DNA of 64,000 nucleotides from Escherichia phage ukendt. Each line of letters begins with the position of its first letter. The first letter of the stretch is position 1. A program made the translations under genes and the position numbers. Location of the stretch: sequence record NC_052661.1; one strand, written 5' to 3'. Below the pieces are notes generated by a model. The model saw only the letters and a list, made by a program, of their open reading frames with translations. It searched no databases and was not told the DNA's origin. This document shows positions 6,805-63,669 of this stretch, in pieces.

Positions 6805-6879
6805 GGCCCTGTAGCTCAATGGGAGAGCTGTCGGCTCATAACCGATAGGTAGCTGGATCGAAACCAGCCAGGGCCACCA
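6805..6879 (+). tRNA. tRNA-Met (anticodon CAT; elongator vs initiator vs Ile-lysidine not resolved)
   Basis: Hand-folded cloverleaf: acceptor GGCCCTG/CAGGGCC, D-stem GCTC/GAGC, anticodon loop CTCATAA, T-arm GCTGG-ATCGAAA-CCAGC, encoded CCA. Confidence 0.75.
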
Positions 6880-6881
6880 AC

Positions 6882-6956
6882 GTCTTTATGGTGTAATGGA
6901 TAGCACAGGAGTCTTCTAAACTCTTAGTCAAGGTTCGATTCCTTGTAAAGACACCA
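6882..6956 (+). tRNA. tRNA-Arg (anticodon TCT)
   Basis: Acceptor GTCTTTA/TAAAGAC, anticodon loop CTTCTAA, T-arm CAAGG-TTCGATT-CCTTG, encoded CCA. Confidence 0.75.
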
Positions 6957-7028
6957 GAACATTTTAACATGAATTAGCTCAAGTGATTTGAACCCACTAC
7001 TGATCATGGTGGCAGAGAATGAGGTAAG

Positions 7029-7100
7029 TATGTCAGACATTATAAACAAAGGCCACGGTTATATTAGAAGACATAAATGCTCGAAGAGCACCGTTCGCTG
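7029..7100 (+). CDS. possible 23-codon micro-ORF between tRNA blocks
   Basis: ATG 7029 with GAGG 5 nt upstream; MSDIINKGHGYIRRHKCSKSTVR; may equally be untranslated spacer or RNA. Confidence 0.15.
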
Positions 7101-7152
7101 AGAACGGGGGTTGGTGGAGTCACCATTCATGGTAAAATGTTTTAAAAAACTA

Positions 7153-7182
7153 TTGACAACTAACACTATTTTATGTTAGATT
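7153..7182 (+). promoter_or_regulatory. sigma70-like promoter (TTGACA, 18 nt, TG-extended TAGATT)
   Basis: Exact -35 at 7153..7158; predicted start site a few nt before tRNA-Ser at 7191. Confidence 0.5.
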
Positions 7183-7190
7183 ATAAGCAT

Positions 7191-7281
7191 GGAAGGGCAA
7201 ATCGACGTGGCGACGAAAACGGTCTTGAAAACCGCCGAGCTTGAAAGAGCCTTGGGAGTTCGACTCTCCCTCCTTCCGCCA
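7191..7281 (+). tRNA. tRNA-Ser (anticodon TGA), type II
   Basis: Acceptor GGAAGGG/TCCTTCC, anticodon arm ACGGT-CTTGAAA-ACCGC, long variable arm, T-arm GGGAG-TTCGACT-CTCCC, G73, CCA. Confidence 0.7.
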
Positions 7282-7285
7282 GATT

Positions 7286-7371
7286 GGTAGATTGGTGAAA
7301 TGGTAGCCACGACAGTTTGCTAAACTGTAGTCGGAAACGGCGTGTAGGTTCGAGTCCTACATCTACCGCCA
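7286..7371 (+). tRNA. tRNA-Ser (anticodon GCT), type II
   Basis: Acceptor GGTAGAT/ATCTACC, anticodon arm ACAGT-TTGCTAA-ACTGT, long variable arm, T-arm GTAGG-TTCGAGT-CCTAC, G73, CCA. Confidence 0.75.
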
Positions 7372-7501
7372 AGTTCTTTTTAATGTAGCTTACTTTAGCA
7401 GAGTAAATCTTCGGCAAGTGGCGGTAACCACTTTACCGATACCTCATAGTTAGTGGTGTGAACACTGGCTATTTTAAAAAGAATTTAAATATTAGTATTT
7501 A

Positions 7502-7589
7502 GGTGAGTTAATTCCGTAGGGGTAGCGGGGCAGACTGTAAATCTGTTATCATTGCGATTCGGGTGGTTCGACTCCATCACTCACCACCA
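7502..7589 (+). tRNA. tRNA-Tyr (anticodon GTA), type II, with atypical 5' region
   Basis: Acceptor GGTGAGT/ACTCACC perfect, anticodon arm GCAGA-CTGTAAA-TCTGT, A73, CCA; junction between acceptor and D-arm is longer than canonical. Confidence 0.5.
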
Positions 7590-7595
7590 AATTAA

Positions 7596-7681
7596 GATGA
7601 GTTGGCTGAATGGTTTAAGCGGCGGACTGTTAATCCGTGTTCGAAAGAACAATATAGGTTCGAATCCTATACTCATCGCCA
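7596..7681 (+). tRNA. type II (long variable arm) tRNA with anticodon GTT; isotype ambiguous (Ser-like body, Asn anticodon)
   Basis: Acceptor GATGAGT/ACTCATC, D-stem GCT/AGC, anticodon arm GCGGA-CTGTTAA-TCCGT, variable-arm hairpin GTTC-GAAA-GAAC, T-arm ATAGG-TTCGAAT-CCTAT, G73, CCA. Confidence 0.55.
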
Positions 7682-7688
7682 GAATTAT

Positions 7689-7765
7689 GGACTTGTAGAG
7701 TTAAGGTAAACCCCCAGTCGCCAATAGGCTTCTGGAATTGCAGGTATCGAATCCTGCCGAGTCCC
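7689..7765 (+). pseudogene. tRNA-like remnant (acceptor and T-arm-like pairing, no canonical anticodon arm)
   Basis: GGACTTG...CGAGTCC acceptor-like pairing, T-like GCAGG-TATCGAAT-CCTGC with 8-nt loop, no encoded CCA, no 5-bp/7-nt anticodon arm found. Confidence 0.25.
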
Positions 7766-7771
7766 AGCATT

Positions 7772-7846
7772 GCTCCTATAGTATAATGGCTATTACAACG
7801 GTTTTGTAATCCGTGGATCTCTGTTCGATTCAGTGTGGGAGCACCA
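7772..7846 (+). tRNA. tRNA-Thr (anticodon TGT)
   Basis: Acceptor GCTCCTA/TGGGAGC with one G-U pair, anticodon loop TTTGTAA, T-loop TTCGATT, encoded CCA. Confidence 0.65.
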
Positions 7847-8118
7847 ACACAACATTAAGAGCACTGTGATTGATCGTCGTATCCTGTGCACAAGGTCTGC
7901 TCGAAAGACAGTGTTCTTAGTATTGTGTTGATCACAAAAAGAGTCACCCGAAACTTGACCGGAGTAGGGTTGGATGGGGCAAAATGAGAAGCGGCTCTCC
8001 CATCGACAGCAACGAAGAATAATATTTGACTTTGGTTTTGTATTATTTAAGTTAGCTTACCGAACGTAGGGCTAGTCACCCAACGGGATACTCGTCACTG
8101 TCCCAATCAATAAAAGTC

Positions 8119-8148
8119 TTGACAACAAATAGTAAAATGTAGTATAGT
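8119..8148 (+). promoter_or_regulatory. sigma70-like promoter (TTGACA, 18 nt, TG-extended TATAGT)
   Basis: Exact -35 at 8119..8124 and TATAGT at 8143..8148; predicted start just upstream of tRNA-Gly. Confidence 0.55.
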
Positions 8149-8159
8149 AAAGATATAGG

Positions 8160-8233
8160 GCGTTCTTGGTGTAGCGGTAGCATTCCGTCCTTCCAAGTCG
8201 GCGGCACGAGTTCGATCCTCGTAGAACGCTCCA
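8160..8233 (+). tRNA. tRNA-Gly (anticodon TCC)
   Basis: Acceptor GCGTTCT/AGAACGC, anticodon loop CTTCCAA, T-arm ACGAG-TTCGATC-CTCGT, encoded CCA. Confidence 0.7.
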
Positions 8234-8330
8234 AATTATTTAATAAAGGGTTGCCAGAAAACTTTCTCTTTTACTCATGGTTTTCTCCTTCTCTCACACT
8301 TCTTCTGGTTGCCCTTCATTAAATGATTTT

Positions 8331-8406
8331 TGGTTTGTAGTGTAGTCCGGTAGCACACGACACTTTGACTGTCGTAGGTTTGGTTCAAATCCAGACAGAC
8401 CAGCCA
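8331..8406 (+). tRNA. tRNA-Gln (anticodon TTG)
   Basis: U1-A72 pair and G73 as in enterobacterial tRNA-Gln; anticodon arm CGACA-CTTTGAC-TGTCG; T-loop TTCAAAT; CCA. Confidence 0.7.
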
Positions 8407-8411
8407 TATAA

Positions 8412-8488
8412 CGGAATTTAGCTCAGTTTGGTAGAGTGTACGCTTTGGGAGCGTATTGTCGCAGGTTCGAATCCTGCAATTCCGACCA
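8412..8488 (+). tRNA. tRNA-Pro (anticodon TGG)
   Basis: Acceptor CGGAATT/AATTCCG, anticodon arm TACGC-TTTGGGA-GCGTA, T-arm GCAGG-TTCGAAT-CCTGC, CCA. Confidence 0.8.
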
Positions 8489-8494
8489 ATTAAA

Positions 8495-8568
8495 TGTTTC
8501 GTAGTTCAATGGTAGAACCCACGACTGATAATCGTGAGACACAAGTTCGATTCTTGTCGAAACAACCA
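8495..8568 (+). tRNA. tRNA-Ile (anticodon GAT)
   Basis: Acceptor TGTTTCG/CGAAACA, D-arm GTTC-AATGGTA-GAAC, anticodon arm CACGA-CTGATAA-TCGTG, T-arm ACAAG-TTCGATT-CTTGT, CCA. Confidence 0.8.
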
Positions 8569-8570
8569 GT

Positions 8571-8643
8571 TTCCCGTTAGACTTACAGGATAAGAGTTCC
8601 ACAGCTTATTGTGATGCTGGTTCGAATCCAGCACGGGATACAT
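8571..8643 (+). pseudogene. tRNA-like remnant (good T-arm, degenerate anticodon arm, no CCA)
   Basis: T-arm GCTGG-TTCGAAT-CCAGC and 6/7 acceptor pairing (TTCCCGT/ACGGGAT); no acceptable anticodon stem-loop. Confidence 0.25.
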
Positions 8644-8646
8644 AAT

Positions 8647-8725
8647 AGCGGGATAGAGGAGTCTGGTCGTCCTCGCCAGTTTCATATGCTGGAGATCATT
8701 GGTTCAAATCCGATTCCCGCCTCCA
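8647..8725 (+). tRNA. second CAT-anticodon tRNA (Met/initiator/Ile-lysidine), with a 1-72 mismatch
   Basis: Anticodon arm CCAGT-TTCATAT-GCTGG, T-loop TTCAAAT, acceptor AGCGGGA/TCCCGCC with an A1-C72 mismatch, CCA. Confidence 0.6.
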
Positions 8726-8840: not shown

Positions 8841-8864
8841 AGCCTCCTTATTGGAGGCTTTTTG
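8841..8864 (+). terminator. rho-independent terminator closing the tRNA array
   Basis: AGCCTCC-TTATT-GGAGGCT hairpin followed by TTTTT. Confidence 0.7.
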
Positions 8865-8883
8865 CTATCTATTGAATAAAACT

Positions 8884-8911
8884 TGACTTATTATTTTTTA
8901 TATGTTAAGAT
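8884..8911 (+). promoter_or_regulatory. sigma70-like promoter (TTGACT, 16 nt, TG-extended TAAGAT)
   Basis: -35 at 8884..8889; TG at 8903..8904 then TAAGAT; AGGAGG RBS and ATG 8933 follow. Confidence 0.5.
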
Positions 8912-9369: not shown

Positions 9370-9540
9370 ATGCGCAATTTTGTAGTTAAAAATGATTTTA
9401 ACCGTTCTTCTTATCATAAAGATAAAAAGAATGATTACACACGGGTTTGGAACTTGGAGGAAGAACTTTATGATGACAGAGAAGACTTGGGAAGAGATCC
9501 TAGCGGAGGCTCAACCAATGGAAGTGAAGAAGATAGTTAA
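9370..9540 (+). CDS. possible 56-aa ORF missing from the track
   Basis: ATG 9370 preceded by GAGGAGG; acidic product; overlaps the 9392..9607 track ORF in another frame, so at most one is real. Confidence 0.25.
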   Translation: MRNFVVKNDFNRSSYHKDKKNDYTRVWNLEEELYDDREDLGRDPSGGSTNGSEEDS

Positions 9541-9590
9541 CAACGCCCCTTCTCTTCCTAAAATAAAATTTTATGAGGAAGTAGAAGATA

Positions 9591-9983
9591 ATGAATCTAA
9601 AGACTAAAACTGTATTAAGTTTTGTTTTAATTGTTGTTCTTATTCTTGCCGGAATGTTTGCTTATAACAAGATACGTGAGTCTGGCTACAAAGATGGTGT
9701 TGCCTATCAAACGCAAGTATATCAAGCAGCCCAAGCAAAAGCAAAACAAGATTTCGATGTTCTTCAAAAAAGAGCGGATGAAGAAAGAGCATTATTAAAT
9801 ACTCAAATAAACAACTTGTCTAAAAACAATGCACAATTAAAAGCAGATTTAGAGAAGAAGAAACAAACGATCAATGAGGATACAACGAATTATGCAAAAA
9901 CTAATTCTGGCAGTATGTCTTGCTTTGCCCCTAATGATGACGGGTTGTTCATCATCAACAAAAGTTTCCCCAGTTCTTATTGA
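9591..9983 (+). CDS. i-spanin (Rz-like inner-membrane spanin)
   Basis: N-terminal transmembrane segment VLSFVLIVVLILAGMFAY followed by a long coiled-coil; overlapped by a lipoprotein ORF in another frame. Confidence 0.55.
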   Translation: MNLKTKTVLSFVLIVVLILAGMFAYNKIRESGYKDGVAYQTQVYQAAQAKAKQDFDVLQKRADEERALLNTQINNLSKNNAQLKADLEKKKQTINEDTTNYAKTNSGSMSCFAPNDDGLFIINKSFPSSY

Positions 9984-10218
9984 TGAGTGTAAGGCCGTAG
10001 CAATAGAAAAGGTTAAAGGTCCAGATTCGGACTTGATGGATAAAGTATCGACACCTGTGCCATACACTAAAAATCAAATTGCAAAAGGGGTTAGTAGATC
10101 TGAAGTTGTCAACAACCAAACTCAAAACAATGCTCTTTGGGAGCAAGATAGACGAAAGGTTTTAGGTTTACAAGCATATATTAAAACACTGCAAGAAAAA
10201 GGTATTATTGCTGAATAA
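9874..10218 (+). CDS. o-spanin (Rz1-like outer-membrane lipoprotein); start may be ATG 9892
   Basis: Signal sequence ending in lipobox-like LMMTG-C; begins inside the i-spanin gene in a different frame. Confidence 0.5.
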   Translation: MRIQRIMQKLILAVCLALPLMMTGCSSSTKVSPVLIDECKAVAIEKVKGPDSDLMDKVSTPVPYTKNQIAKGVSRSEVVNNQTQNNALWEQDRRKVLGLQAYIKTLQEKGIIAE

Positions 10219-10227
10219 GGAGGGAAT

Positions 10228-12303
10228 GTGGCAAAGAAAAAGGCAGCAGGTAGTTTAGCTGGAGTAGATATTGAAGTAAAGGCTCAACCAGGTAAACAGA
10301 CTCTTGCAATGGATTTAATGCCAGAAGTTATGATTTATGGTGGTGCCGCTGGATGTGTTTCTGCTGAAACGGAATATCTTACAAAAGATGGTTGGAGACA
10401 GATTAGTGAATATTCGGGAGAAGATATTTACCAATACAACCCTAAGAATAAGCGTTTAGAATTGGTAACACCTTACTTTGTAGAATACGATTTAAATGGA
10501 GATAATCTATACAGAATAACAAATGGTGTAGGATTGTTCCAAGAACTTAGTATGGAACACCGTTTTGTATTCTATAAGAAAAAGAAATCAAAGAAACATT
10601 TCGAGATTCTTGTAGGAGATCTTATTGCATTACAGCAAATAGGAAAACCCCTGCAAGGTTATGTAGAAAATCCATTCGGTAAACGTGTTCCTTTTAACAT
10701 ACCTGGTAAAAAGAGCACTTACTTAAAAATACACGAGGTTATTTCAACAGATGATAAGAAATATTGTTTTGAGACTCCAAGCAGCTATATTGTCTTTAGA
10801 CGTGGCGATCACTGCTTCGTTACTGGGAATAGCGGCAAGTCTCGTCTGCTATTGCTGAAAGCTTTAAAATACGCCTACAAAGACCCTTTGTTTGGTGGAA
10901 TACTTTTCCGTAAGAACACCACTGCTCACCGTAAACCAGGTGGTCTGTTTACAGAAGCAAAACGTTTGTATCTTCCTTTACAACCGCACGTAAAAGAAAG
11001 TACAATGGATATCATTTTTGAAGCCACTGGCGGTGGAACCCTCAAATTTGACCATTTGGAAAACGATAACGTAACCGCAGAAACAAACCATCAGGGTACA
11101 CAGTATTCAATGGTAGGTTTTGACGAGTTAACCCACTTCACACAGTATGAAATGCTCTATCTTCTGGGACGTATGCGTTCAGAATCAGAAACAAGCTTCA
11201 TGTTGTGCACATGTAACCCCGATGCAGATAGTTGGGTTTTGAATTGGGTACTACCTTATCTCGATGAGGGCGGTTATCCTAGAGAAGATATGTGTGGTAA
11301 ACAAAAATATTTCATCATTGTTAACGATGAACCTGTTTTTGCTGACACACCTGAAGAACTGAAAGAAAAATATCCAGAAAACTGTTTCATGGAAAACCCT
11401 AATACAGGGGAGACAGTTATTATTGAACCACAAACTTTCGTATTTATCGGTGGGACAATATTTGATAACCCAGAATTGATTAGGCTTAACCCTAATTATT
11501 TAGCACAGCTTAAATCACAAACAGCAATCAAAAGAGCACAACTCTTGGACGGCTGTTGGTTTGCACGTATACAGAAAGAGTCTTTCTTCCAACGTGAATG
11601 GTTGCATAAGATATCTTATAAAGATGTTCCTAATAATCTTAAACTAATGCGAGCATGGGATAAAGCTGTTTCAGTTCCTACAGAAACTTATCGTTATCCA
11701 GACTATACAACATCTGTCAAAATGGGTAAAGACCAAGATGGTAATATCTACATCTTTGGTGACTATGATTATGATGCTGTGGATGAGAAAAGTAAAATTT
11801 TCGGAAGGTTTCGAAGATTACCTGGGGAAAGGGATAACCTGATTCTAAATCAATGTAAGATTGATGGACCAGAAGTTACAGTAGTTCTTCCTAAAGACCC
11901 ATCTGGTGCTGGGACAATAGAATATACAGAGTCTGCAAAGAAACTTATTCTAGAGGGTTTTGTTGTTAAACCGGATGCTATGCCAGGTAACAAGAAAAAG
12001 CTTCAGCGTTTTATGCCTTTTAGTAGTGCGTGTCAAAACGGTTTTGTTTATATTGTTGAAGATTCTTTCCCTAATGTGGAAACTTTAACCCACTTTTATA
12101 AAGAATTGGAATCTTTCAATGGTGAAAGATCTACAGCCACTATTAAAGATGACATTCCCGATGCTGCTGCTTCTTGTTTCAATACTCTGTCAAAAGAGAA
12201 TACTTTCAAAGCAGTAGCTATCCCTGCAACAACAAATGCTCCTACAGGATACAGTAGAATGAACAGCGGATTTCACCAACCGTATAGTGTCCGTAAAAGA
12301 TAA
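10228..12303 (+). CDS. terL: terminase large subunit, interrupted by an in-frame intein
   Basis: GTG start after AAGGAGGG RBS; Walker A reconstituted as GAAGSGKS once residues 43-201 are removed; Walker B MVGFDEL; nuclease-like C-terminal half. Confidence 0.85.
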   Translation: MAKKKAAGSLAGVDIEVKAQPGKQTLAMDLMPEVMIYGGAAGCVSAETEYLTKDGWRQISEYSGEDIYQYNPKNKRLELVTPYFVEYDLNGDNLYRITNGVGLFQELSMEHRFVFYKKKKSKKHFEILVGDLIALQQIGKPLQGYVENPFGKRVPFNIPGKKSTYLKIHEVISTDDKKYCFETPSSYIVFRRGDHCFVTGNSGKSRLLLLKALKYAYKDPLFGGILFRKNTTAHRKPGGLFTEAKRLYLPLQPHVKESTMDIIFEATGGGTLKFDHLENDNVTAETNHQGTQYSMVGFDELTHFTQYEMLYLLGRMRSESETSFMLCTCNPDADSWVLNWVLPYLDEGGYPREDMCGKQKYFIIVNDEPVFADTPEELKEKYPENCFMENPNTGETVIIEPQTFVFIGGTIFDNPELIRLNPNYLAQLKSQTAIKRAQLLDGCWFARIQKESFFQREWLHKISYKDVPNNLKLMRAWDKAVSVPTETYRYPDYTTSVKMGKDQDGNIYIFGDYDYDAVDEKSKIFGRFRRLPGERDNLILNQCKIDGPEVTVVLPKDPSGAGTIEYTESAKKLILEGFVVKPDAMPGNKKKLQRFMPFSSACQNGFVYIVEDSFPNVETLTHFYKELESFNGERSTATIKDDIPDAAASCFNTLSKENTFKAVAIPATTNAPTGYSRMNSGFHQPYSVRKR
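10354..10830 (+). mobile_element. mini-intein (159 aa) inserted in the terminase P-loop
   Basis: Begins with Cys43 (CVSAETEYLTKDGW), S-x-x-H block (SMEH), ends ...HCFVTGN followed by Ser; no endonuclease-sized domain. Confidence 0.75.
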
Positions 12304-25660: not shown

Positions 25661-26671
25661 ATGGCAGAAAGAGAGTATACAAAAGCTCCTGCCCCTAATT
25701 TAAACAGGGCATACAAATTATTAATTGGTTCTGCCACAAACACAATACAGAAGAGAACTAAGAACTCGGCATTTAAATCTACAGTAGATTTGGATACCAA
25801 GTTAGGAACAACAGAAAAATCCTCTTCTAATTTGTATTTGTTGCAAGACCATCAAATAACCTTCAGTATTAAGAAAGATAATAACAAAGATCCTAACCAA
25901 GCAGAGATTGTAGTTTATAACCTTTCGGATGATACTGTTAACTATATAAACCGTGGTATCCGAAATAACTTGGCTGTTGCTTTAGCGGTAGGATACGAAG
26001 GTGAAGAGTTGGTTATGGTCTTCAAAGGAACTATCCAGTGGGTTAGTGATACTTTTGACTCGGTAGACAGGAAAACCACTTTACACTGTTTGGATGGCGG
26101 TATTAACATTGCAGAAGCAAGAACAAGCCGCAGTTATCCAAAAGGAACTAAAATCAAACGTGTTGTGACAGATTTGGTAAAGGATTTAGGAACTACAGAA
26201 GGTAATATACACGTAGATAATGATCAAACCTTATCCTCAGCAACAGCTATGTGTGGAAACACTTCACATTACCTAGAACATATTTGTAAAAGTATTGATC
26301 ACAATGTGTCAATACAAGATGGATCTGTTTATGTCACTCCTCGTTCACAAATGTCTAGTGCACGTAGCGCCTACATTAGCCCTGAAACTGGTCTGATAGG
26401 AAGTCCAGAACCATTCCACAACGATATAAAACCTACTAAAAAAGTTACCAAGTCATCTAAGAAGGCAAAGAAACCTACAGATGGTGTTAAATTCAAATGC
26501 CAAATGAATGGTGCAATATTACCAGAAAAAACAATCTGGTTAAAAAGCCGAGATTATGATGGTCCATTTAAAGTTGTTTCTGTTTCTCACAATGGTGATA
26601 AAGAGGGTAAAGAGTGGGTTACTGAGGTGGAGTGTGTATCCGTGTCTGAAATAATGACTAAGGAGAAATAA
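25661..26671 (+). CDS. baseplate hub-like protein (tentative)
   Basis: 336-aa ORF between tape measure and spike-like gene; position-based call. Confidence 0.35.
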   Translation: MAEREYTKAPAPNLNRAYKLLIGSATNTIQKRTKNSAFKSTVDLDTKLGTTEKSSSNLYLLQDHQITFSIKKDNNKDPNQAEIVVYNLSDDTVNYINRGIRNNLAVALAVGYEGEELVMVFKGTIQWVSDTFDSVDRKTTLHCLDGGINIAEARTSRSYPKGTKIKRVVTDLVKDLGTTEGNIHVDNDQTLSSATAMCGNTSHYLEHICKSIDHNVSIQDGSVYVTPRSQMSSARSAYISPETGLIGSPEPFHNDIKPTKKVTKSSKKAKKPTDGVKFKCQMNGAILPEKTIWLKSRDYDGPFKVVSVSHNGDKEGKEWVTEVECVSVSEIMTKEK

Positions 26672-27405
26672 TGGATGCATTGAATTTTGTCACAGCAATG
26701 CGTGGCTTAATGACAGAACAATTAGCAGAAGTCCATACAGCCTTGCCAGTCCGTGTGACTGGCGTTAATTATGGTGCTAAAACTGTCACTTTAGAATCTA
26801 TTGTTAAAAACACACGATCTAGTGAAGATGAAATAGATTATCCTACTTTTGAAGATGTTCCTTTTATGGTTAATGGTGGGGGGACAGGAAGAATCTCATT
26901 CCCTATTAAAGCTGGTGATTTAGGAACTGTTATATTTTCTGAAAGAGATCCTTCTAATGCACTGCAAACTAGTGGAGAAACCTCTTCATCATCCACTTTT
27001 ATGCAGCCTTGTGGATTATACCCTATTTGTTTTATTCCCAAAATAGCTACAGGAACAGATTCAACAGAAGCTGTAGATTCTGAAAAGGTAGTTATTTCTA
27101 ATAACAAAAACACGTACGCTTCTTTCGACCCTACAGGTAATATTTCAATATGGAATAGTCAAGGGATGAAAATAGATATTACTACCTCTGGTATTACTAT
27201 TACAGATGGCACAGGGACTTTGGATCTAAAAGGTGGTAATTTAACTTTCAAAGGCGGCGTAGCAGATATTAATGGTCTTAAAATAGATCAGAACGGTTTG
27301 ATGACAGATGGTAATGGCATCGGATTCCATACTCACACACACACGGTTCGTAACATTCAGAGCGGTAGCTCAAGTGCCGAGTCCTTAAAACCAACAGGAG
27401 CCTAA
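26671..27405 (+). CDS. baseplate central spike protein (tentative)
   Basis: 244 aa; Gly/Thr-rich repetitive C-terminal half ending in a HTHTH histidine cluster. Confidence 0.45.
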   Translation: MDALNFVTAMRGLMTEQLAEVHTALPVRVTGVNYGAKTVTLESIVKNTRSSEDEIDYPTFEDVPFMVNGGGTGRISFPIKAGDLGTVIFSERDPSNALQTSGETSSSSTFMQPCGLYPICFIPKIATGTDSTEAVDSEKVVISNNKNTYASFDPTGNISIWNSQGMKIDITTSGITITDGTGTLDLKGGNLTFKGGVADINGLKIDQNGLMTDGNGIGFHTHTHTVRNIQSGSSSAESLKPTGA

Positions 27406-31390: not shown

Positions 31391-33544
31391 ATGAAACAAG
31401 CTATATTTACTGTCACGCGAGACAAGAGAGTAAATGCGAGTTCATTTAACTACACGACTGTTGACGGAACAGCAGTCGCTGGTAGAGATTATATTGCAAA
31501 ATCGGGAACACTTGTGTTCCCTGATGATGCTGATTCTGCTACCATTGTGGTTGAAGTATTTGAACGACCAAAGAACTCAATAGATCTTAACTTCTCCCTC
31601 CAAGTTTCAGGGATTAGTCAAAATAATATGATGGTTGAAACAATCATCAATTGTATTATAACTACTATCCAAGAAAATACCACTCCAATAACTTGGACTA
31701 CAAAAGACGTTAAAATGTTCTCTCCTATGTATTGGACAATAGATTCTCAAGCAACGGAAAGTTGTTCTATTGTATCTCATGGAGACTCTTTTACTGCAAG
31801 ATTTGTAAACAGAACAACAGCAGGTTTGGCAGGGGTTATCTGGAGCACAGTTGACAAATATGACCATAAAGGTGTTGGGTATTTACCCCACACAGATTTA
31901 AGTTCAGAGAAACTTTGGTTTAAAATGGAAATTAGTCAAAACATGCCAGGTTTTAAAGAAGAACCTTTGGTGCCGACTTTGACTGTAACTCTCCTGGATA
32001 AAAGTGTTCATTATGTCAGTTTAGGATTCTACGCTTCAGATATTTCAGAAGATGGTAAAACAGCTACAATCAAGTTAGATTTTGGTAATATCTTTTCTGG
32101 CCCTAATAATGATATTCCTTTGGATATGAGTGCTGTAGATAATATTTTCTTCTCTTTGATTACAGCAAGGTATGAAGAAATAGAAGAGATTGTACCTATT
32201 GCCAGTCTAGAGGCTTGGTTTACTTTCACTCTTCTTGAACCTACTTCTGGTTACAGTATGATGAAAGTCAGCAACCTTGTCCAGCCTGAACATGATATTC
32301 GCATGTGCACATCTTATGATGATATGTATAACCTGACTCCAGAGAGAGTTATTTATAATACATATGCACTAGGTTATCGTGGAATGATTAACCATTATAA
32401 CGGAATGTCTCACTATTATGAGTTCTCATGGAACGGAACATCTTGGGCTTTAAATAGATCTGTTTTCCTGAATCCGGCTACAGAAGCTTGGCTTAACAGT
32501 TTCCATTCTATAGCTAATGAAAATGGCTACACAATAATGAACTCTTTGAGTTTTGAGTTGATGAGCACAGTTTGTCCTGTTGAATGGGTCCAGCATGATT
32601 GGAACGATGCTCTTGCAGCAACAGGGTATAAGCCTCCTAGTTACGTGTTGTCTCCAACTATTGACGAAGGCATGGAATATTTGCAAAATGTTATTAACAA
32701 AATAGCATCTATTTCTCAAGCTAATAACATTCCAGTCGTCATTCAAATTGGTGAACCTTGGTGGTGGTATAATACAGCAAGTAAAATGCCTTGTATATAT
32801 GATTACACTACCAAACTGGCATTCAATACAGAAACAGGCTTATTTGCACAAGATGCAGGAACAATAGATAATTATAAAACAGGAACGCCATTTGACGAAT
32901 ACTATGCATTTCTGTCTCGTAAACTAGGGTTAAGAGTTACAAAGTTTGCAACAGACACCAGAGCAACTTATCCTGGAGCTAAAGTAACATTGCTTCCGTT
33001 CTTACCATCAATTATCGGCAACGGTTTGATGGAGAAAGTTAACTTTCCGTCTGATTACTACATTCCTGAAGCTTTTGATTTTTATTGTTCAGAATGTTAC
33101 GACTGGCTTCTGGAAGGTAAAATGATGAAAGCATTCGATGCAATTACCATACCACATGAAAAATTAGGTTTTGAATATTCTGATATTCACTATCTTTCGG
33201 GTTTTGTTCCAGATGCTACTCTTGCACCTTTGTATGGCTTCGATCCTGAATCAAACTACCGCACGTATCTTTGGAAAATGATTATAGGTAATATAGTGTT
33301 GAACGCCAATAAGTTTGACGGACTTACACAATATATATGGGCCTATCCTCAAATAATGCATGATTCTATCACGGTAGTTAATTCTCAATCCCAAGTTTTC
33401 TATATGGGTAACGTGCCTTTGAACGTCTATTTACAGGATATCACTCTTAAACAGGCAAATGTTGAGATTGCCACCATAAGTGGAATTACATTAGCCACTA
33501 AATCTGGAGAAGATTTAGTAACAACACAAAAATTTTATATATAG
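31391..33544 (+). CDS. tail fibre/spike protein
   Basis: 717-aa ORF co-linear with neighbouring spike genes; no catalytic motif recognised. Confidence 0.4.
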   Translation: MKQAIFTVTRDKRVNASSFNYTTVDGTAVAGRDYIAKSGTLVFPDDADSATIVVEVFERPKNSIDLNFSLQVSGISQNNMMVETIINCIITTIQENTTPITWTTKDVKMFSPMYWTIDSQATESCSIVSHGDSFTARFVNRTTAGLAGVIWSTVDKYDHKGVGYLPHTDLSSEKLWFKMEISQNMPGFKEEPLVPTLTVTLLDKSVHYVSLGFYASDISEDGKTATIKLDFGNIFSGPNNDIPLDMSAVDNIFFSLITARYEEIEEIVPIASLEAWFTFTLLEPTSGYSMMKVSNLVQPEHDIRMCTSYDDMYNLTPERVIYNTYALGYRGMINHYNGMSHYYEFSWNGTSWALNRSVFLNPATEAWLNSFHSIANENGYTIMNSLSFELMSTVCPVEWVQHDWNDALAATGYKPPSYVLSPTIDEGMEYLQNVINKIASISQANNIPVVIQIGEPWWWYNTASKMPCIYDYTTKLAFNTETGLFAQDAGTIDNYKTGTPFDEYYAFLSRKLGLRVTKFATDTRATYPGAKVTLLPFLPSIIGNGLMEKVNFPSDYYIPEAFDFYCSECYDWLLEGKMMKAFDAITIPHEKLGFEYSDIHYLSGFVPDATLAPLYGFDPESNYRTYLWKMIIGNIVLNANKFDGLTQYIWAYPQIMHDSITVVNSQSQVFYMGNVPLNVYLQDITLKQANVEIATISGITLATKSGEDLVTTQKFYI

Positions 33545-35967: not shown

Positions 35968-35989
35968 ATAATTGATATTATGCTTCATG

Positions 35990-36022
35990 GTAATTGTGGG
36001 TGAATCACTCACAATTACTTTT
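35990..36022 (+). terminator. long near-perfect inverted repeat after the tailspike gene, followed by TTTT
   Basis: GTAATTGTGGGTGA / TCACTCACAATTAC arms (one mismatch), then TTTTAG. Confidence 0.5.
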
Positions 36023-36547
36023 AGGTACTACAGTTGATAATTCAGATTGATACATTGGATTAGCAGGTGCGTGTACTACTAGCACTTGAATTTTGATACA
36101 TAAATCCGGCACCCTCCCTCACCCTCAACGCGCCCAATTGCCTCCATAGGAGGCTCATTACCTCCTTGTGGGCTTTGTTGTAGGCATGATTGCTGTTCAA
36201 TATTTTAGGCACTAACCAGCCGACATTGTTGATGGAAATATAAACGTAAACAACAATGCATATAACTCAGTTGTTGTGGCACTAAATTCTTACGTAGGTT
36301 ATAGGTTGTTGTAAAACAAAACCCCGACTCGGCGGAGAATTATAAAGGTACTATCATGGACTTCATTACGATTCAAACAAACTATGTCCTGCAAGCGCAT
36401 GTCATCGCCATGTGATAAAATGATGAAAACATATCGTAGCAGGGTTAATCTTGTCTTTAGTTACTATCGTACTAACTCAAAGTGTTGTCACTACCACTGC
36501 AAGCCCCCTCCAAAGAGGGGCTTACTTAGAAAAACAAAGAGGTTTAT

Positions 36548-36856
36548 ATGAACGAATTATTCTCACAAGGTGGTAAGGGTTCAACAGGAATCCTAACCAA
36601 CAAGCAAGCAGTAGCCCGTCACTTTGGGGTTAAACAATCTGAGGTTGTTTACTTCTCAGTAGGTGCTCTGCTTACAGGTTACAAAGTCATCTATGACAAA
36701 GTGTCACAGAGGGCTTACTCATTACCTGCTGATATTGCCCCAGGTACTACTGCCATTAGTCTTAGTGCTGCTGTACTTGTGCATTCAGCGGGTTCTGTAG
36801 ACCTTGGGGAATTAGCTATATCTCGTGATTTAAAAAGTAATGAGAACGCACTATGA
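36548..36856 (+). CDS. orphan tail-spike module (homologous to an internal segment of the 41160..44213 spike)
   Basis: ARHFGVKQSEVVYFSVGALLTGYKVIYD...GSVDLGELAISR aligns with ARKYGLLDDEVAYATAGQSLTGIKALYD...GSVDLSALAVER in the 1017-aa spike; preceded by 580 bp without ORFs. Confidence 0.35.
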   Translation: MNELFSQGGKGSTGILTNKQAVARHFGVKQSEVVYFSVGALLTGYKVIYDKVSQRAYSLPADIAPGTTAISLSAAVLVHSAGSVDLGELAISRDLKSNENAL

Positions 36857-37095
36857 GAAAATTTTTAATAGGTATGTTCTGTACATATCCTGATAATAAA
36901 GTCAGTTCTACTAAAGTCTGGAACGCTGTAGGCATGTCGGTTATGACAGGCATGTTTATCTTTTTAGGAATAGAAAAAGAAATTCCTGAATGGATGGGTT
37001 GGGCTTTTGTTTTCATGATAACTCCTTCTCGCCTCATGAAAAATCTTATTGATTTACGCTGGGGCAGATCACAATCTACCAAAGAGGATGACTAA
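36853..37095 (+). CDS. small two-TM membrane protein (holin-like or exclusion-type)
   Basis: 80 aa; hydrophobic segments VWNAVGMSVMTGMFIFLGI and WMGWAFVFMITPSRL; charged C-terminus. Confidence 0.35.
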   Translation: MRKFLIGMFCTYPDNKVSSTKVWNAVGMSVMTGMFIFLGIEKEIPEWMGWAFVFMITPSRLMKNLIDLRWGRSQSTKEDD

Positions 37096-40820: not shown

Positions 40821-41156
40821 ATGGAATTTCAAGAAGCATGGGGACTTGCCAAGGATGCAATCATCCCTTTAATCGGAGTCATCTGGTTCTTTTTCAAACA
40901 AAAAATGGATAAATTCGGCTCTGATCTTGAGGAAATGGAGGAGAAAAGTCGAGAGCTAGAGAAGAAGTTGGTCTTTGTTGAATCAACTTATGCAACTAAA
41001 GCCGAACTTACCCAGATGCTAAATCAAATTAACTCTACATTAATGGCAAATAATAACACTCTTGAGCAAAAAATTGAAAAGATTATGGACCTCAAGAATG
41101 CGACTATTCAAATGATGCTAGATGACATAGTTAAACGTACACAGAATAAGGGGTAA
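40821..41156 (+). CDS. small membrane-anchored coiled-coil protein
   Basis: 111 aa; N-terminal hydrophobic segment AIIPLIGVIWFFF then a charged coiled-coil. Confidence 0.3.
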   Translation: MEFQEAWGLAKDAIIPLIGVIWFFFKQKMDKFGSDLEEMEEKSRELEKKLVFVESTYATKAELTQMLNQINSTLMANNNTLEQKIEKIMDLKNATIQMMLDDIVKRTQNKG

Positions 41157-62206: not shown

Positions 62207-62505
62207 TCTACAGCATCATGAGTCCTTGCAAAACGCTCCCACAGCACAGCATCTACTTTAAGAACCATACAAGGATAAATACTGTCGTTGATCATATCAA
62301 TGCTATATTTATCTACATCCTTTTCATCTTCCATAAACAAAGTAGCGTATGCTTCCAAATGTTTATGGGTGTAGTATACGTCCTCTTCGGTAAGACCGAC
62401 AACCAGGTAACTTGCTACAACAACAGTATTATCTTCTTGCATTTTAACTCCCCTTTGGTAGATAGAAACCATGCACTTTATCTCGATAAACAAGACGCAT
62501 ATCAC
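62158..62505 (-). CDS. hypothetical protein (may start at the internal Met after the endolysin stop)
   Basis: 115-aa track ORF overlaps the endolysin 3' end by ~60 nt. Confidence 0.3.
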   Translation of the reverse strand: MICVLFIEIKCMVSIYQRGVKMQEDNTVVVASYLVVGLTEEDVYYTHKHLEAYATLFMEDEKDVDKYSIDMINDSIYPCMVLKVDAVLWERFARTHDAVECSAVMSQNNILGEIH

Positions 62506-62965
62506 GCTCCCAGTGTGTCCTTATATTCCGTTTCTTGAAGTATAGAGCACCTTTAGTAACATCTAAAACAGACCGCAATTCAGGAAAATGTTTCTCTAAA
62601 TAAAGTAAACGTTCCGCTATTGCTTTTGCTTCCTGCCACTTATCTTTCTCTGTTACGTTAAAAGTTTTCGCATATGAGAATTGCCCTTTCTGGAACAAGA
62701 CTCCTCTGACTGTGTTAGGGAAGTATGTATCATTTCTTCTGTTGATTACTACATTCCCAACGGCATTCATTCCTTTTTTACCCAGACCTCGACCTTCTGC
62801 GTAAATTGCACAAGCTAATAGAATTTTATCATTATATTGCTTTGTACATTTGTGAACTACTTTAGCGGTTTTTACGTTTGCAGCTTCGGCTTTCGCCACA
62901 ACAGGTGTAAATGTAAAAGCAGTTAAGGATAGTAACGCAACTGTTACAAAGTTTTTTATCAGCAA
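62444..62965 (-). CDS. endolysin, SleB/CwlJ-type cell-wall hydrolase with N-terminal signal sequence
   Basis: N-terminal hydrophobic leader ending AKA-EA; mature region contains LLACAIYAEGRG...VGNVVINR...VLFQKGQFSY. Confidence 0.65.
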   Translation of the reverse strand: MLIKNFVTVALLSLTAFTFTPVVAKAEAANVKTAKVVHKCTKQYNDKILLACAIYAEGRGLGKKGMNAVGNVVINRRNDTYFPNTVRGVLFQKGQFSYAKTFNVTEKDKWQEAKAIAERLLYLEKHFPELRSVLDVTKGALYFKKRNIRTHWERDMRLVYRDKVHGFYLPKGS

Positions 62966-63066
62966 ATTTTGCCTCCTTTTTAAGTTAACGAATTTCTAGT
63001 ATAACACGATAGAGGCTTTATTGCAAGAGGGGGATTTCTCCCCCCCTCAAAATCATTTGTTAATTA

Positions 63067-63669
63067 TTATGGACATTCATACCATTCTTTTTTACCACCG
63101 AAGGCCATCACCACATCACAAATATCCAGACCAGCTTTACCTACACCATATGCTTTCAGCTTCCATTCCCCATCTTCACGAACCAAGGAAGCCACGTGGC
63201 AGATTGTGTTGCCAGCTACTTCAGGAGCCAGGAAGTCAAAATCCAGAATTTCCACATTGCGCTCGGAGTCGAAGATTTTAAGCATACCTTCAGAAGCATG
63301 ACCAAAACGTTTCAGACCTGTATCATCATCAATGGTCAGAACAAAGGCAATCTCTTGTGCATCAGGAGAGATTTTAGCCAGAGTAATATCAATCTGCTCC
63401 ATGCTGCCAGTTCCATCACGAACATCATCACCAGCAAAGGTAGAACGTTCAGGATCAAACTTGTTAGCATAGCAAACCAGATGACGTGCAGACAGCATTT
63501 CAGGATTGCCAGCGGCATTGTGACGACAAACCAGTGCACTTACATCCAGATCCAGTTTAGAATCAGATTTCCAAGAGAATTCCAGGCGCAGTTCTTTCAG
63601 AGCCGGAGCAACTTTCTTCAGGGAAATTTTTTCGCTAGAGCCTTTTTTCAGGGAAATTTTATCAGTCAT
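63067..63669 (-). CDS. TerD-family protein
   Basis: 200 aa; ISLKKGSSEKISLKK N-terminal repeat, LDLDVSA, FVLTIDDD and GEWKLKAYGVGKAGL align with hallmark segments of bacterial TerD. Confidence 0.7.
   Translation of the reverse strand: MTDKISLKKGSSEKISLKKVAPALKELRLEFSWKSDSKLDLDVSALVCRHNAAGNPEMLSARHLVCYANKFDPERSTFAGDDVRDGTGSMEQIDITLAKISPDAQEIAFVLTIDDDTGLKRFGHASEGMLKIFDSERNVEILDFDFLAPEVAGNTICHVASLVREDGEWKLKAYGVGKAGLDICDVVMAFGGKKEWYECP

Follow-up and report, generated by a model that had tools for sequence, protein, structure and literature searches.

The lysis genes of phage rV5 have been described as arranged 'as in phage T4' (PMC3606486), and in CB7, rV5 and PVP-SE1 the spanin pair adjoins the large terminase gene, with no lysis cassette (PMC7344957). 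The published account of LL12 places its spanin pair likewise beside the terminase gene, and in published work rV5-like phages (Vequintavirinae and Stephanstirmvirinae) normally have a dispersed layout. All Vequintavirinae genera are reported to encode SleB-like proteins that carry a signal peptide, and holin identification in them is difficult (PMC7344957). In a census of spanins, phi92 and phAPEC8 form a two-member family for both spanin subunits (Kongari et al. 2018, PMC6139136). Here, we analyse an overlapped pair of spanin genes at 9591..10218 in a 64,000-nucleotide (nt) stretch of Escherichia phage ukendt (NC_052661.1; the whole stretch is called the window below), together with the enzymes and membrane proteins that might act with it. 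We consider it likely that 9591..9983 and 9892..10218 encode a two-component spanin within a dispersed, T4-like lysis set that has a T4-type lysozyme as its likely principal endolysin.

Approximately 3.5 kb around the spanin locus share 99.2% identity with Escherichia phage ESCO13 and many other Phapecoctavirus genomes, and 63 records match this region at ≥95% identity. By sequence, the source phage is a phAPEC8/ESCO13-type Phapecoctavirus, i.e. an E. coli myovirus. Phapecoctavirus genomes are well sampled and ∼150 kb long, so the window takes in ∼43% of one; its approximate counterpart in ESCO13 is 50.8–110.6 kb, to which the window adds ∼4 kb. ESCO13, the nearest complete genome (99% identical), was used for genes outside the window, and EmilieFrey (BASEL phage Bas61), from a sister genus, provided a curated annotation.

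The i-spanin gene (9591..9983, + strand) encodes a 130-amino-acid (aa) Rz-like protein that is predicted to sit in the inner membrane with type II topology and to extend a long helix into the periplasm. The product matches phrog_4297 'Rz-like spanin' (E 3e-35) and four further Rz-like PHROGs, and it is named 'Rz-like spanin' in the ESCO13 and phAPEC8 RefSeq records. A single strong N-terminal transmembrane domain (TMD) spans residues 7–25 (Wimley-White octanol ΔG −11 kcal/mol) and is preceded by lysines K4 and K6, in keeping with type II topology. In an AlphaFold2 (AF2) model (predicted local distance difference test, pLDDT, 82), residues 3–104 form one continuous helix and the tail beyond is disordered. 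In agreement with a helical, charged periplasmic domain, 30% of residues 30–105 are charged. Upstream of the i-spanin gene are two candidate genes that overlap each other: 9370..9540 (56 aa, annotated in ESCO13) and 9392/9470..9607, which has an acidic product, GGAGGA before the ATG at 9470 and an ATGA-type overlap with the i-spanin start. No TMD was found in the product of either candidate.

The o-spanin gene lies in another frame. The open reading frame (ORF) 9874..10218 (+ strand) encodes 114 aa, and its 110-nt overlap with the 3′ end of the i-spanin gene, together with a phrog_1267 match, a lipobox and cross-genus conservation, identifies the product as a putative Rz1-like outer-membrane lipoprotein. 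The ATG at 9892 is the better, and probable, start: GAGGA lies upstream of it, and the alignment with phrog_1267 'Rz-like spanin' (E 9e-21) begins at its Met. The gene starts 92–110 nt before the i-spanin stop and ends 235 nt past it, which is the 'overlapped' arrangement among the spanin architecture classes described in PMC7344957. Judged by lipobox pattern and hydrophobic segment, the protein started at 9892 has a lipoprotein signal, MQKLILAVCLALPLMMTG/CSS, in which the lipobox LMMTG/C fits the PROSITE-type pattern. Cys19 is followed by Ser at +2 and +3, with no Asp at +2, and the Ser at +2 implies that the o-spanin is an outer-membrane lipoprotein. In the corresponding region of EmilieFrey, 66–67% aa identity is retained (tblastn E ∼1e-38).

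Existing records treat this ORF inconsistently. The ESCO13 RefSeq record calls it from an internal start (L001 4105..4320), giving 71 aa and no lipobox, the phAPEC8_ev052 record omits it, and the phAPEC8 RefSeq record (L016 298..642) carries the full ORF as a 'hypothetical protein'. The omission and the internal start would fit a chance open frame with no o-spanin at all. However, a chance frame would have to account for the PHROG match, a correctly placed lipobox and the identity kept in another genus, and the o-spanin is already listed in the spanin census and annotated by BASEL, which gives Bas61 an overlapped i-spanin and o-spanin immediately before terL. These four lines effectively refute it, and we give the idea next to no credence.

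The spanin pair heads the late packaging/structural block, directly upstream of the large terminase gene terL (10228..12303, + strand; Terminase_6N, E 5e-17). A first-pass annotation of the window, made from the sequence alone, had described an overlapped i-/o-spanin pair just upstream of the terminase gene; the ORFs, PHROG matches, TMD, lipobox and the terL start at 10228 bear this out, and as a whole the ORFs match what that annotation had observed. By analogy with lambda Rz/Rz1, the i-spanin would be anchored in the inner membrane by its one N-terminal helix and reach into the periplasm as a long helical rod, and the o-spanin would be directed by its lipoprotein signal to lipidation on Cys19 and to the outer membrane. 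The two C-termini presumably bind each other across the periplasmic space. After cutting of the peptidoglycan mesh, the spanin complex would collapse and fuse the inner and outer membranes as the last step of lysis. Transcription of the pair would be shared with the late packaging genes. An array of 10 transfer RNA genes (6805..8725; Met, Arg, Ser, Asn, Thr, Gly, Gln, Pro, Ile and Met) immediately precedes this packaging block; beyond the array come a terminator-like hairpin (8841..8859) and a TTGACT-17-TAAGAT site (8883..8911).

The enzyme that most likely cuts the mesh is encoded outside the window. ESCO13 gp082 (32123..32623, L004) is a 166-aa T4 gpe-type lysozyme by T4 lysozyme (T4L) homology and Pfam Phage_lysozyme. 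Its gene lies ∼18 kb left of the window, and the protein has no signal sequence, as for a cytoplasmic enzyme. The alignment with T4L in the PDB runs end to end (residues 7–165 against 3–161, E ∼1e-48), and E15, D24 and T30 correspond to the Glu11/Asp20/Thr26 triad of T4 lysozyme, consistent with orthology. The lysozyme, spanin and SleB regions are each matched at ≥95% identity by 63 records. In agreement, BASEL calls the EmilieFrey orthologue the endolysin and leaves the SleB-like protein 'hypothetical'. The T4-type lysozyme is therefore most likely the principal endolysin, judged by sequence, and as such would require a large-hole holin.

We examined the surroundings of the ESCO13 lysozyme gene for a holin–endolysin cassette. 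The neighbours encode a 49-aa basic protein, a glutaredoxin-like protein and PhoH, and no TMD was found in any flanking gene. A canonical cassette elsewhere in the genome was what the first-pass annotation had named as contradicting its proposal; half of one is present, i.e. a canonical cytoplasmic endolysin with no holin beside it. The SKA64 record names the lysozyme 'tyrosine 2,3-aminomutase', several other records call it 'baseplate hub + tail lysozyme', and this mislabelling probably explains the published statement that SKA64 has one endolysin. The first ∼70 residues of the ESCO13 lysozyme are also identical to PDB 7rgr 'Artificial protein L056'. Our literature search found no experimental work on Phapecoctavirus endolysins.

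Within the window, the only recognisable muralytic domain belongs to a SleB/Hydrolase_2-type peptidoglycan hydrolase encoded at 62444..62965 (− strand); the central spike (26671..27405) has no lysozyme or muralytic domain. The claim that this is the only recognisable muralytic enzyme therefore holds for the window but not for the phage, given the lysozyme of ESCO13. The separation from the spanin genes, put at ∼52 kb, is 52.2 kb. Residues 62–168 match Pfam Hydrolase_2 (PF07486) with 64.1 bits against a cutoff of 27, and the protein also matches PDB SleB 4F55 (E 4e-7). Glu57 aligns with the Glu of the 'YGESRG' motif of B. cereus SleB, which we take from the SleB structure to be the catalytic residue. 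Eight SleB homologues were aligned (from Phapecoctavirus, Justusliebigvirus, rV5, Henunavirus, Mydovirus, Seunavirus, a T5-like phage and Pseudomonas Nankokuvirus), and this Glu is invariant in all of them.

The SleB-type gene has a TTG start 7 nt after AAGGAGG, and the N-terminus of its product consists of MLIK, a 19-residue hydrophobic region (NFVTVALLSLTAFTFTPVV) and AKA/EA. By rule-based prediction this is a cleavable Sec signal, with a basic n-region, a hydrophobic h-region and small residues at −3 and −1. A Sec signal with small residues at these positions is found in 7 of the 8 aligned homologues, so the secretion signal proposed by the first-pass annotation is upheld. The h-region contains 0 Gly and 2 Ala over its 19 residues (ΔG −7.6), unlike a signal-anchor-release (SAR) domain. 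The AxA site and the scarcity of Gly argue for a cleavable Sec signal rather than a SAR domain, and a cleavable signal fits a pinholin-controlled model less well. The gene lies in the replication/early arm. Its product would act as an accessory or second endolysin, most likely as an accessory, possibly early, periplasmic hydrolase.

Several points weigh against this division of labour and the spanin reading on which it builds. Our analysis is computational throughout, resting on sequence comparison and structural models, and we infer the T4-type lysozyme of the source phage from 99%-identical relatives, its locus being outside the window. The mature o-spanin has 90 aa and 4 Pro (4%), so it is not the short proline-rich peptide that is typical of lambda-like o-spanins, although such a peptide is not obligatory. 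The transcription timing is a guess made from where the genes lie and from promoter matches that are weak. In RefSeq the label 'endolysin' is given to the SleB-type protein rather than to the lysozyme, and with the T4-type lysozyme located elsewhere this has led at least one published analysis to report a single endolysin. A two-TMD protein directly follows SleB in Henunavirus (76 aa) and Seunavirus (57 aa), and in Certrevirus a two-TMD gene abuts or overlaps the SleB homologue (PMC7344957). The SleB homologue of CB7 has a signal peptide and was toxic when expressed in E. coli, a result the authors mention as data not shown (PMC7344957). SleB may thus be a genuine endolysin, perhaps paired with a holin, in parts of the wider family.

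The toxicity, the adjoining two-TMD genes, the signal peptide and the invariant Glu all favour the scheme that the first-pass annotation had put forward. In that scheme, periplasmic SleB is the working endolysin, freed or activated when an 80-aa pinholin depolarises the membrane; the T4-type lysozyme would then be redundant. The proposed pinholin is a membrane protein with two TMDs encoded at 36853..37095 (+ strand), translationally coupled in the baseplate operon. Its TMDs span residues 22–40 (−6.9) and 47–65 (−5.7) and are joined by an acidic 6-residue loop; the C-terminal tail carries 4 K/R and 4 D/E, and the predicted orientation is N-in/C-in, as in class II holins. This topology, the charged tail and predicted late-operon expression favour a holin-like role. 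BME3 has two endolysins (a lysozyme and a SleB-like hydrolase) whose surroundings contain no TMD proteins, and the candidates named for it are two class-II-like proteins located at a distance, with 61 and 81 residues (PMC12210895). The 81-residue protein is very probably a homologue of the 80-aa protein, because the EmilieFrey homologue has 81 codons.

However, the genomic setting and conservation of the 80-aa protein point elsewhere. It matches phrog_1322 'membrane protein' (E 2e-27), and its gene sits between a tailspike-anchor ORF and a Baseplate_J gene, 25 kb from either lysis locus and so unlinked to lysis genes. The family is found in 370 phage records across the rV5-like supergroup and, among the matches listed, is placed in the tail module and never called 'holin'. 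The protein is 85% identical in EmilieFrey, which is atypical for holins, whereas the spanins of the same genera share 50–67%. In addition, genera that carry a SleB-adjacent two-TMD gene keep the 80-aa homologue in the tail module, and this coexistence means that the 80-aa family probably does something else. The scheme is further weakened on the side of the enzyme. Close relatives encode a T4 gpe orthologue, no TMD is present in the three genes downstream of SleB in the window, and neither the SleB-adjacent two-TMD proteins nor rV5 gp129 have a detectable homologue in the window, ESCO13 or EmilieFrey. The AxA site and low Gly content also argue for a released, untethered enzyme, and the scheme does not account for how this would be held inactive. 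We therefore regard SleB gated by an 80-aa pinholin as unlikely. The topology that made the 80-aa protein appear the sole holin-like candidate is real, but the protein is a conserved tail-module component and other candidates exist; likewise, the signal and the topology that suggested an exported endolysin with a two-TMD partner stand, but the pairing is weakened. Overall, the spanins, the signal peptide and the absence of a holin by homology survive from the earlier interpretation, and its premise of a sole endolysin does not.

A short ORF-poor region precedes the 80-aa gene. Within 35968..36856, an orphan 102-aa ORF (36548..36856) comes after a gap of ∼580 nt and corresponds to only the N-terminal anchor domain of tailspikes (phrog_7992, E 2e-60, and many others). 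This ORF may represent a remnant, or else a docking module that tailspike exchange has left behind.

A different role for the SleB-type protein is suggested by its distribution and neighbourhood. It may not be a lysis enzyme but an early periplasmic peptidoglycan remodelling factor common to several large virulent phage families, acting for example in cell-wall adaptation during infection or in superinfection interference. The family extends over 1092 phage records that include T5-like, rV5-like, Pbuna-/PAK_P1-like and phiKZ-like phages. Its gene lies in the replication/early arm and adjoins rIIA in rV5, Henunavirus and Seunavirus (rIIA being a neighbour in Vequintavirinae), and the T5-like phage AKFV33 encodes a homologue with a signal, in a stretch where T5-consensus promoters are annotated. 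T5 has its own endolysin and holin, which fits an accessory enzyme, and Phapecoctavirus likewise has a separate endolysin besides SleB. Immediately before the SleB-type gene (62966..63045, − strand), a G/C hairpin (gagggggggagaaatccccctc) is followed by a sigma-70-like promoter and the strong AAGGAGG. The promoter (TTGCAA-17-TATACT, TG-extended; 62998..63026, − strand) is a weak match located between the hairpin and the ribosome-binding site, and suggests that the gene has its own host-type promoter. Near SleB there were 14 promoter-like sites against 8.6 ± 3.1 in shuffled controls, not clearly above them; more generally, promoter and terminator scans were barely above shuffled background, and timing arguments are therefore weak.

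Early timing of the SleB-type gene is thus conjectural. Moreover, a muramidase that is active and secreted should do harm at that stage, toxicity has been reported (PMC7344957), and the holin-like genes that adjoin SleB in some genera point to lysis. On balance, we regard early remodelling as a real but less likely possibility. A broader version, which we rate as quite unlikely, is that a Sec-exported SleB-type muralytic enzyme is ancestral to both rV5- and T5-like phages and serves a purpose other than classical holin-gated lysis. That role might be a second, holin-independent lysis route, triggered by membrane depolarisation through the conserved 80-aa baseplate-operon protein, or it might be early cell-wall remodelling. 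If this were true, the interchangeable lysozymes (T4-type here, non-homologous in rV5) would be later add-ons.

With the T4-type lysozyme as the preferred principal endolysin, a holin would be needed, and the first-pass annotation had found no obvious one. Indeed, no Pfam or PHROG holin family matched any of the small membrane proteins detected in the window and in ESCO13, among them the 80-aa protein, a 111-aa membrane protein and nine more from ESCO13, and no holin is annotated anywhere in the curated BASEL Bas61 genome. Searches with rV5 gp129, rV5 ORF90, the Henunavirus 76-aa protein and the Seunavirus 57-aa protein gave nothing significant in the window, ESCO13 or EmilieFrey. A hydrophobicity filter over all ORFs combined with cross-genus conservation was non-discriminating, since alternate-frame ORFs of conserved genes match as well.

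The 111-aa protein (40821..41156, + strand) could itself be the holin. It is a type II membrane protein with a single N-terminal TMD (residues 7–25) and a large, helical, charged C-terminal domain predicted to lie outside the membrane. Its gene directly follows a tail-fibre assembly gene that matches Caudo_TAP, which resembles the position of T4 t after gene 38, and the protein is 76% conserved in EmilieFrey. Against this, it has no similarity to Phage_holin_T or other holin families, its cytoplasmic N-terminus has only ∼6 residues, and its PHROG family (phrog_15210, E 4e-70) is labelled 'lipoprotein', alongside a weak match to the Rz-like phrog_739 (E 1e-3). It might just as well act as an antiholin-like, exclusion or fibre-assembly factor. 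We therefore rank it as a second-rank holin/antiholin or exclusion candidate, and consider it very unlikely to be the holin. Further candidates outside the window are ESCO13 gp109 (60 aa) and gp209 (73 aa). In conclusion, the holin is not assignable by homology, and we prefer no candidate with confidence.

Two regions next to the lysis loci showed further features. An in-frame 159-aa insertion in terL (10354..10830) splits the Walker A motif (YGGAAG, then CVSAETEYLTKDGW...HCFVTGN, then SGKS). It starts with Cys and ends with Asn-Ser, like a mini-intein. FelixO1-like TerL proteins align across the junction in one piece, whereas those of Stephanstirmvirinae align in two, 159 aa apart. The insert had no Pfam or PDB sequence match, and its AF2 model is all-beta with a pLDDT of 37, too poor for a fold search. 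At the other locus, the SleB-type gene is adjoined by a gene for a TerD-domain protein (63067..63669, − strand; Pfam TerD, E 3e-28). This belongs to a tellurite-resistance-like cluster (TerD, TelA and TerC) that runs past the window (ESCO13 110–117 kb, L005).

Earlier work on this lineage already describes the spanin pair, its location next to terL, endolysin genes far from it and a holin that is missing, so these results add little new biology. Their practical value is in annotation, as several Phapecoctavirus records start the o-spanin at the wrong codon, leave it unnamed or omit it. The identity of the holin in rV5-like phages and the role of the exported SleB are relevant to phage-therapy candidates of this genus.

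Compared with known systems, the lysis genes appear dispersed as in T4, with the spanins by terL, the lysozyme elsewhere and SleB in the replication/early arm. In T4 (e, t and pseT.3/pseT.2), as in the rV5-like phages (rV5, LL12, PVP-SE1, CB7 and BME3), the endolysin, spanins and putative holin occupy separate regions. The lysozyme of ESCO13 is a true gpe orthologue, whereas a T-type holin and rI/rIII homologues were not found among the membrane proteins scanned. The rV5-like phages share with this locus spanins beside the large terminase gene and a holin that is missing or guessed; rV5 itself differs in its lysozyme (gp89), which is non-homologous, and in a 78-aa two-TMD protein (gp129) that has no counterpart here.

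Like the SleB/CwlJ hydrolases and the phage homologues rV5 ORF2 'SleB', CB7_83 and T5.083, the SleB-type protein has the catalytic domain with its invariant Glu, and like these phage proteins it begins with a Sec-type signal. The N-terminal peptidoglycan-binding domain of Bacillus SleB is absent, the PDB entries being aligned over the catalytic domain only, and the window has no SleB-adjacent two-TMD gene, unlike some relatives. With the SAR endolysin/pinholin systems of phage 21, P1 Lyz, phiKMV and N4, it shares an exported muralytic enzyme and a small two-TMD protein. In contrast to those systems, there is an AxA signal-peptidase site with little Gly/Ala enrichment, a cytoplasmic lysozyme is also present, and the candidate pinholin is encoded 25 kb away in the baseplate operon.

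The spanins resemble lambda Rz/Rz1 and P2 LysB/LysC in combining a type II helical inner-membrane subunit with an outer-membrane lipoprotein from another frame, and the overlapped, rather than fully embedded, o-spanin layout is that of P2. Unlike in lambda and P2, the pair lies outside any holin–endolysin cassette. Lambda Rz1 has no detectable sequence similarity to the o-spanin, and is a proline-rich protein of ∼40 aa, whereas the mature o-spanin here is longer and has one extra Cys. The closest match is the phi92/phAPEC8 family: the proteins are the same (∼99% identity to phAPEC8-group genomes), as are the overlap and the position upstream of terL, nothing of substance differs, and the record annotations alone vary.

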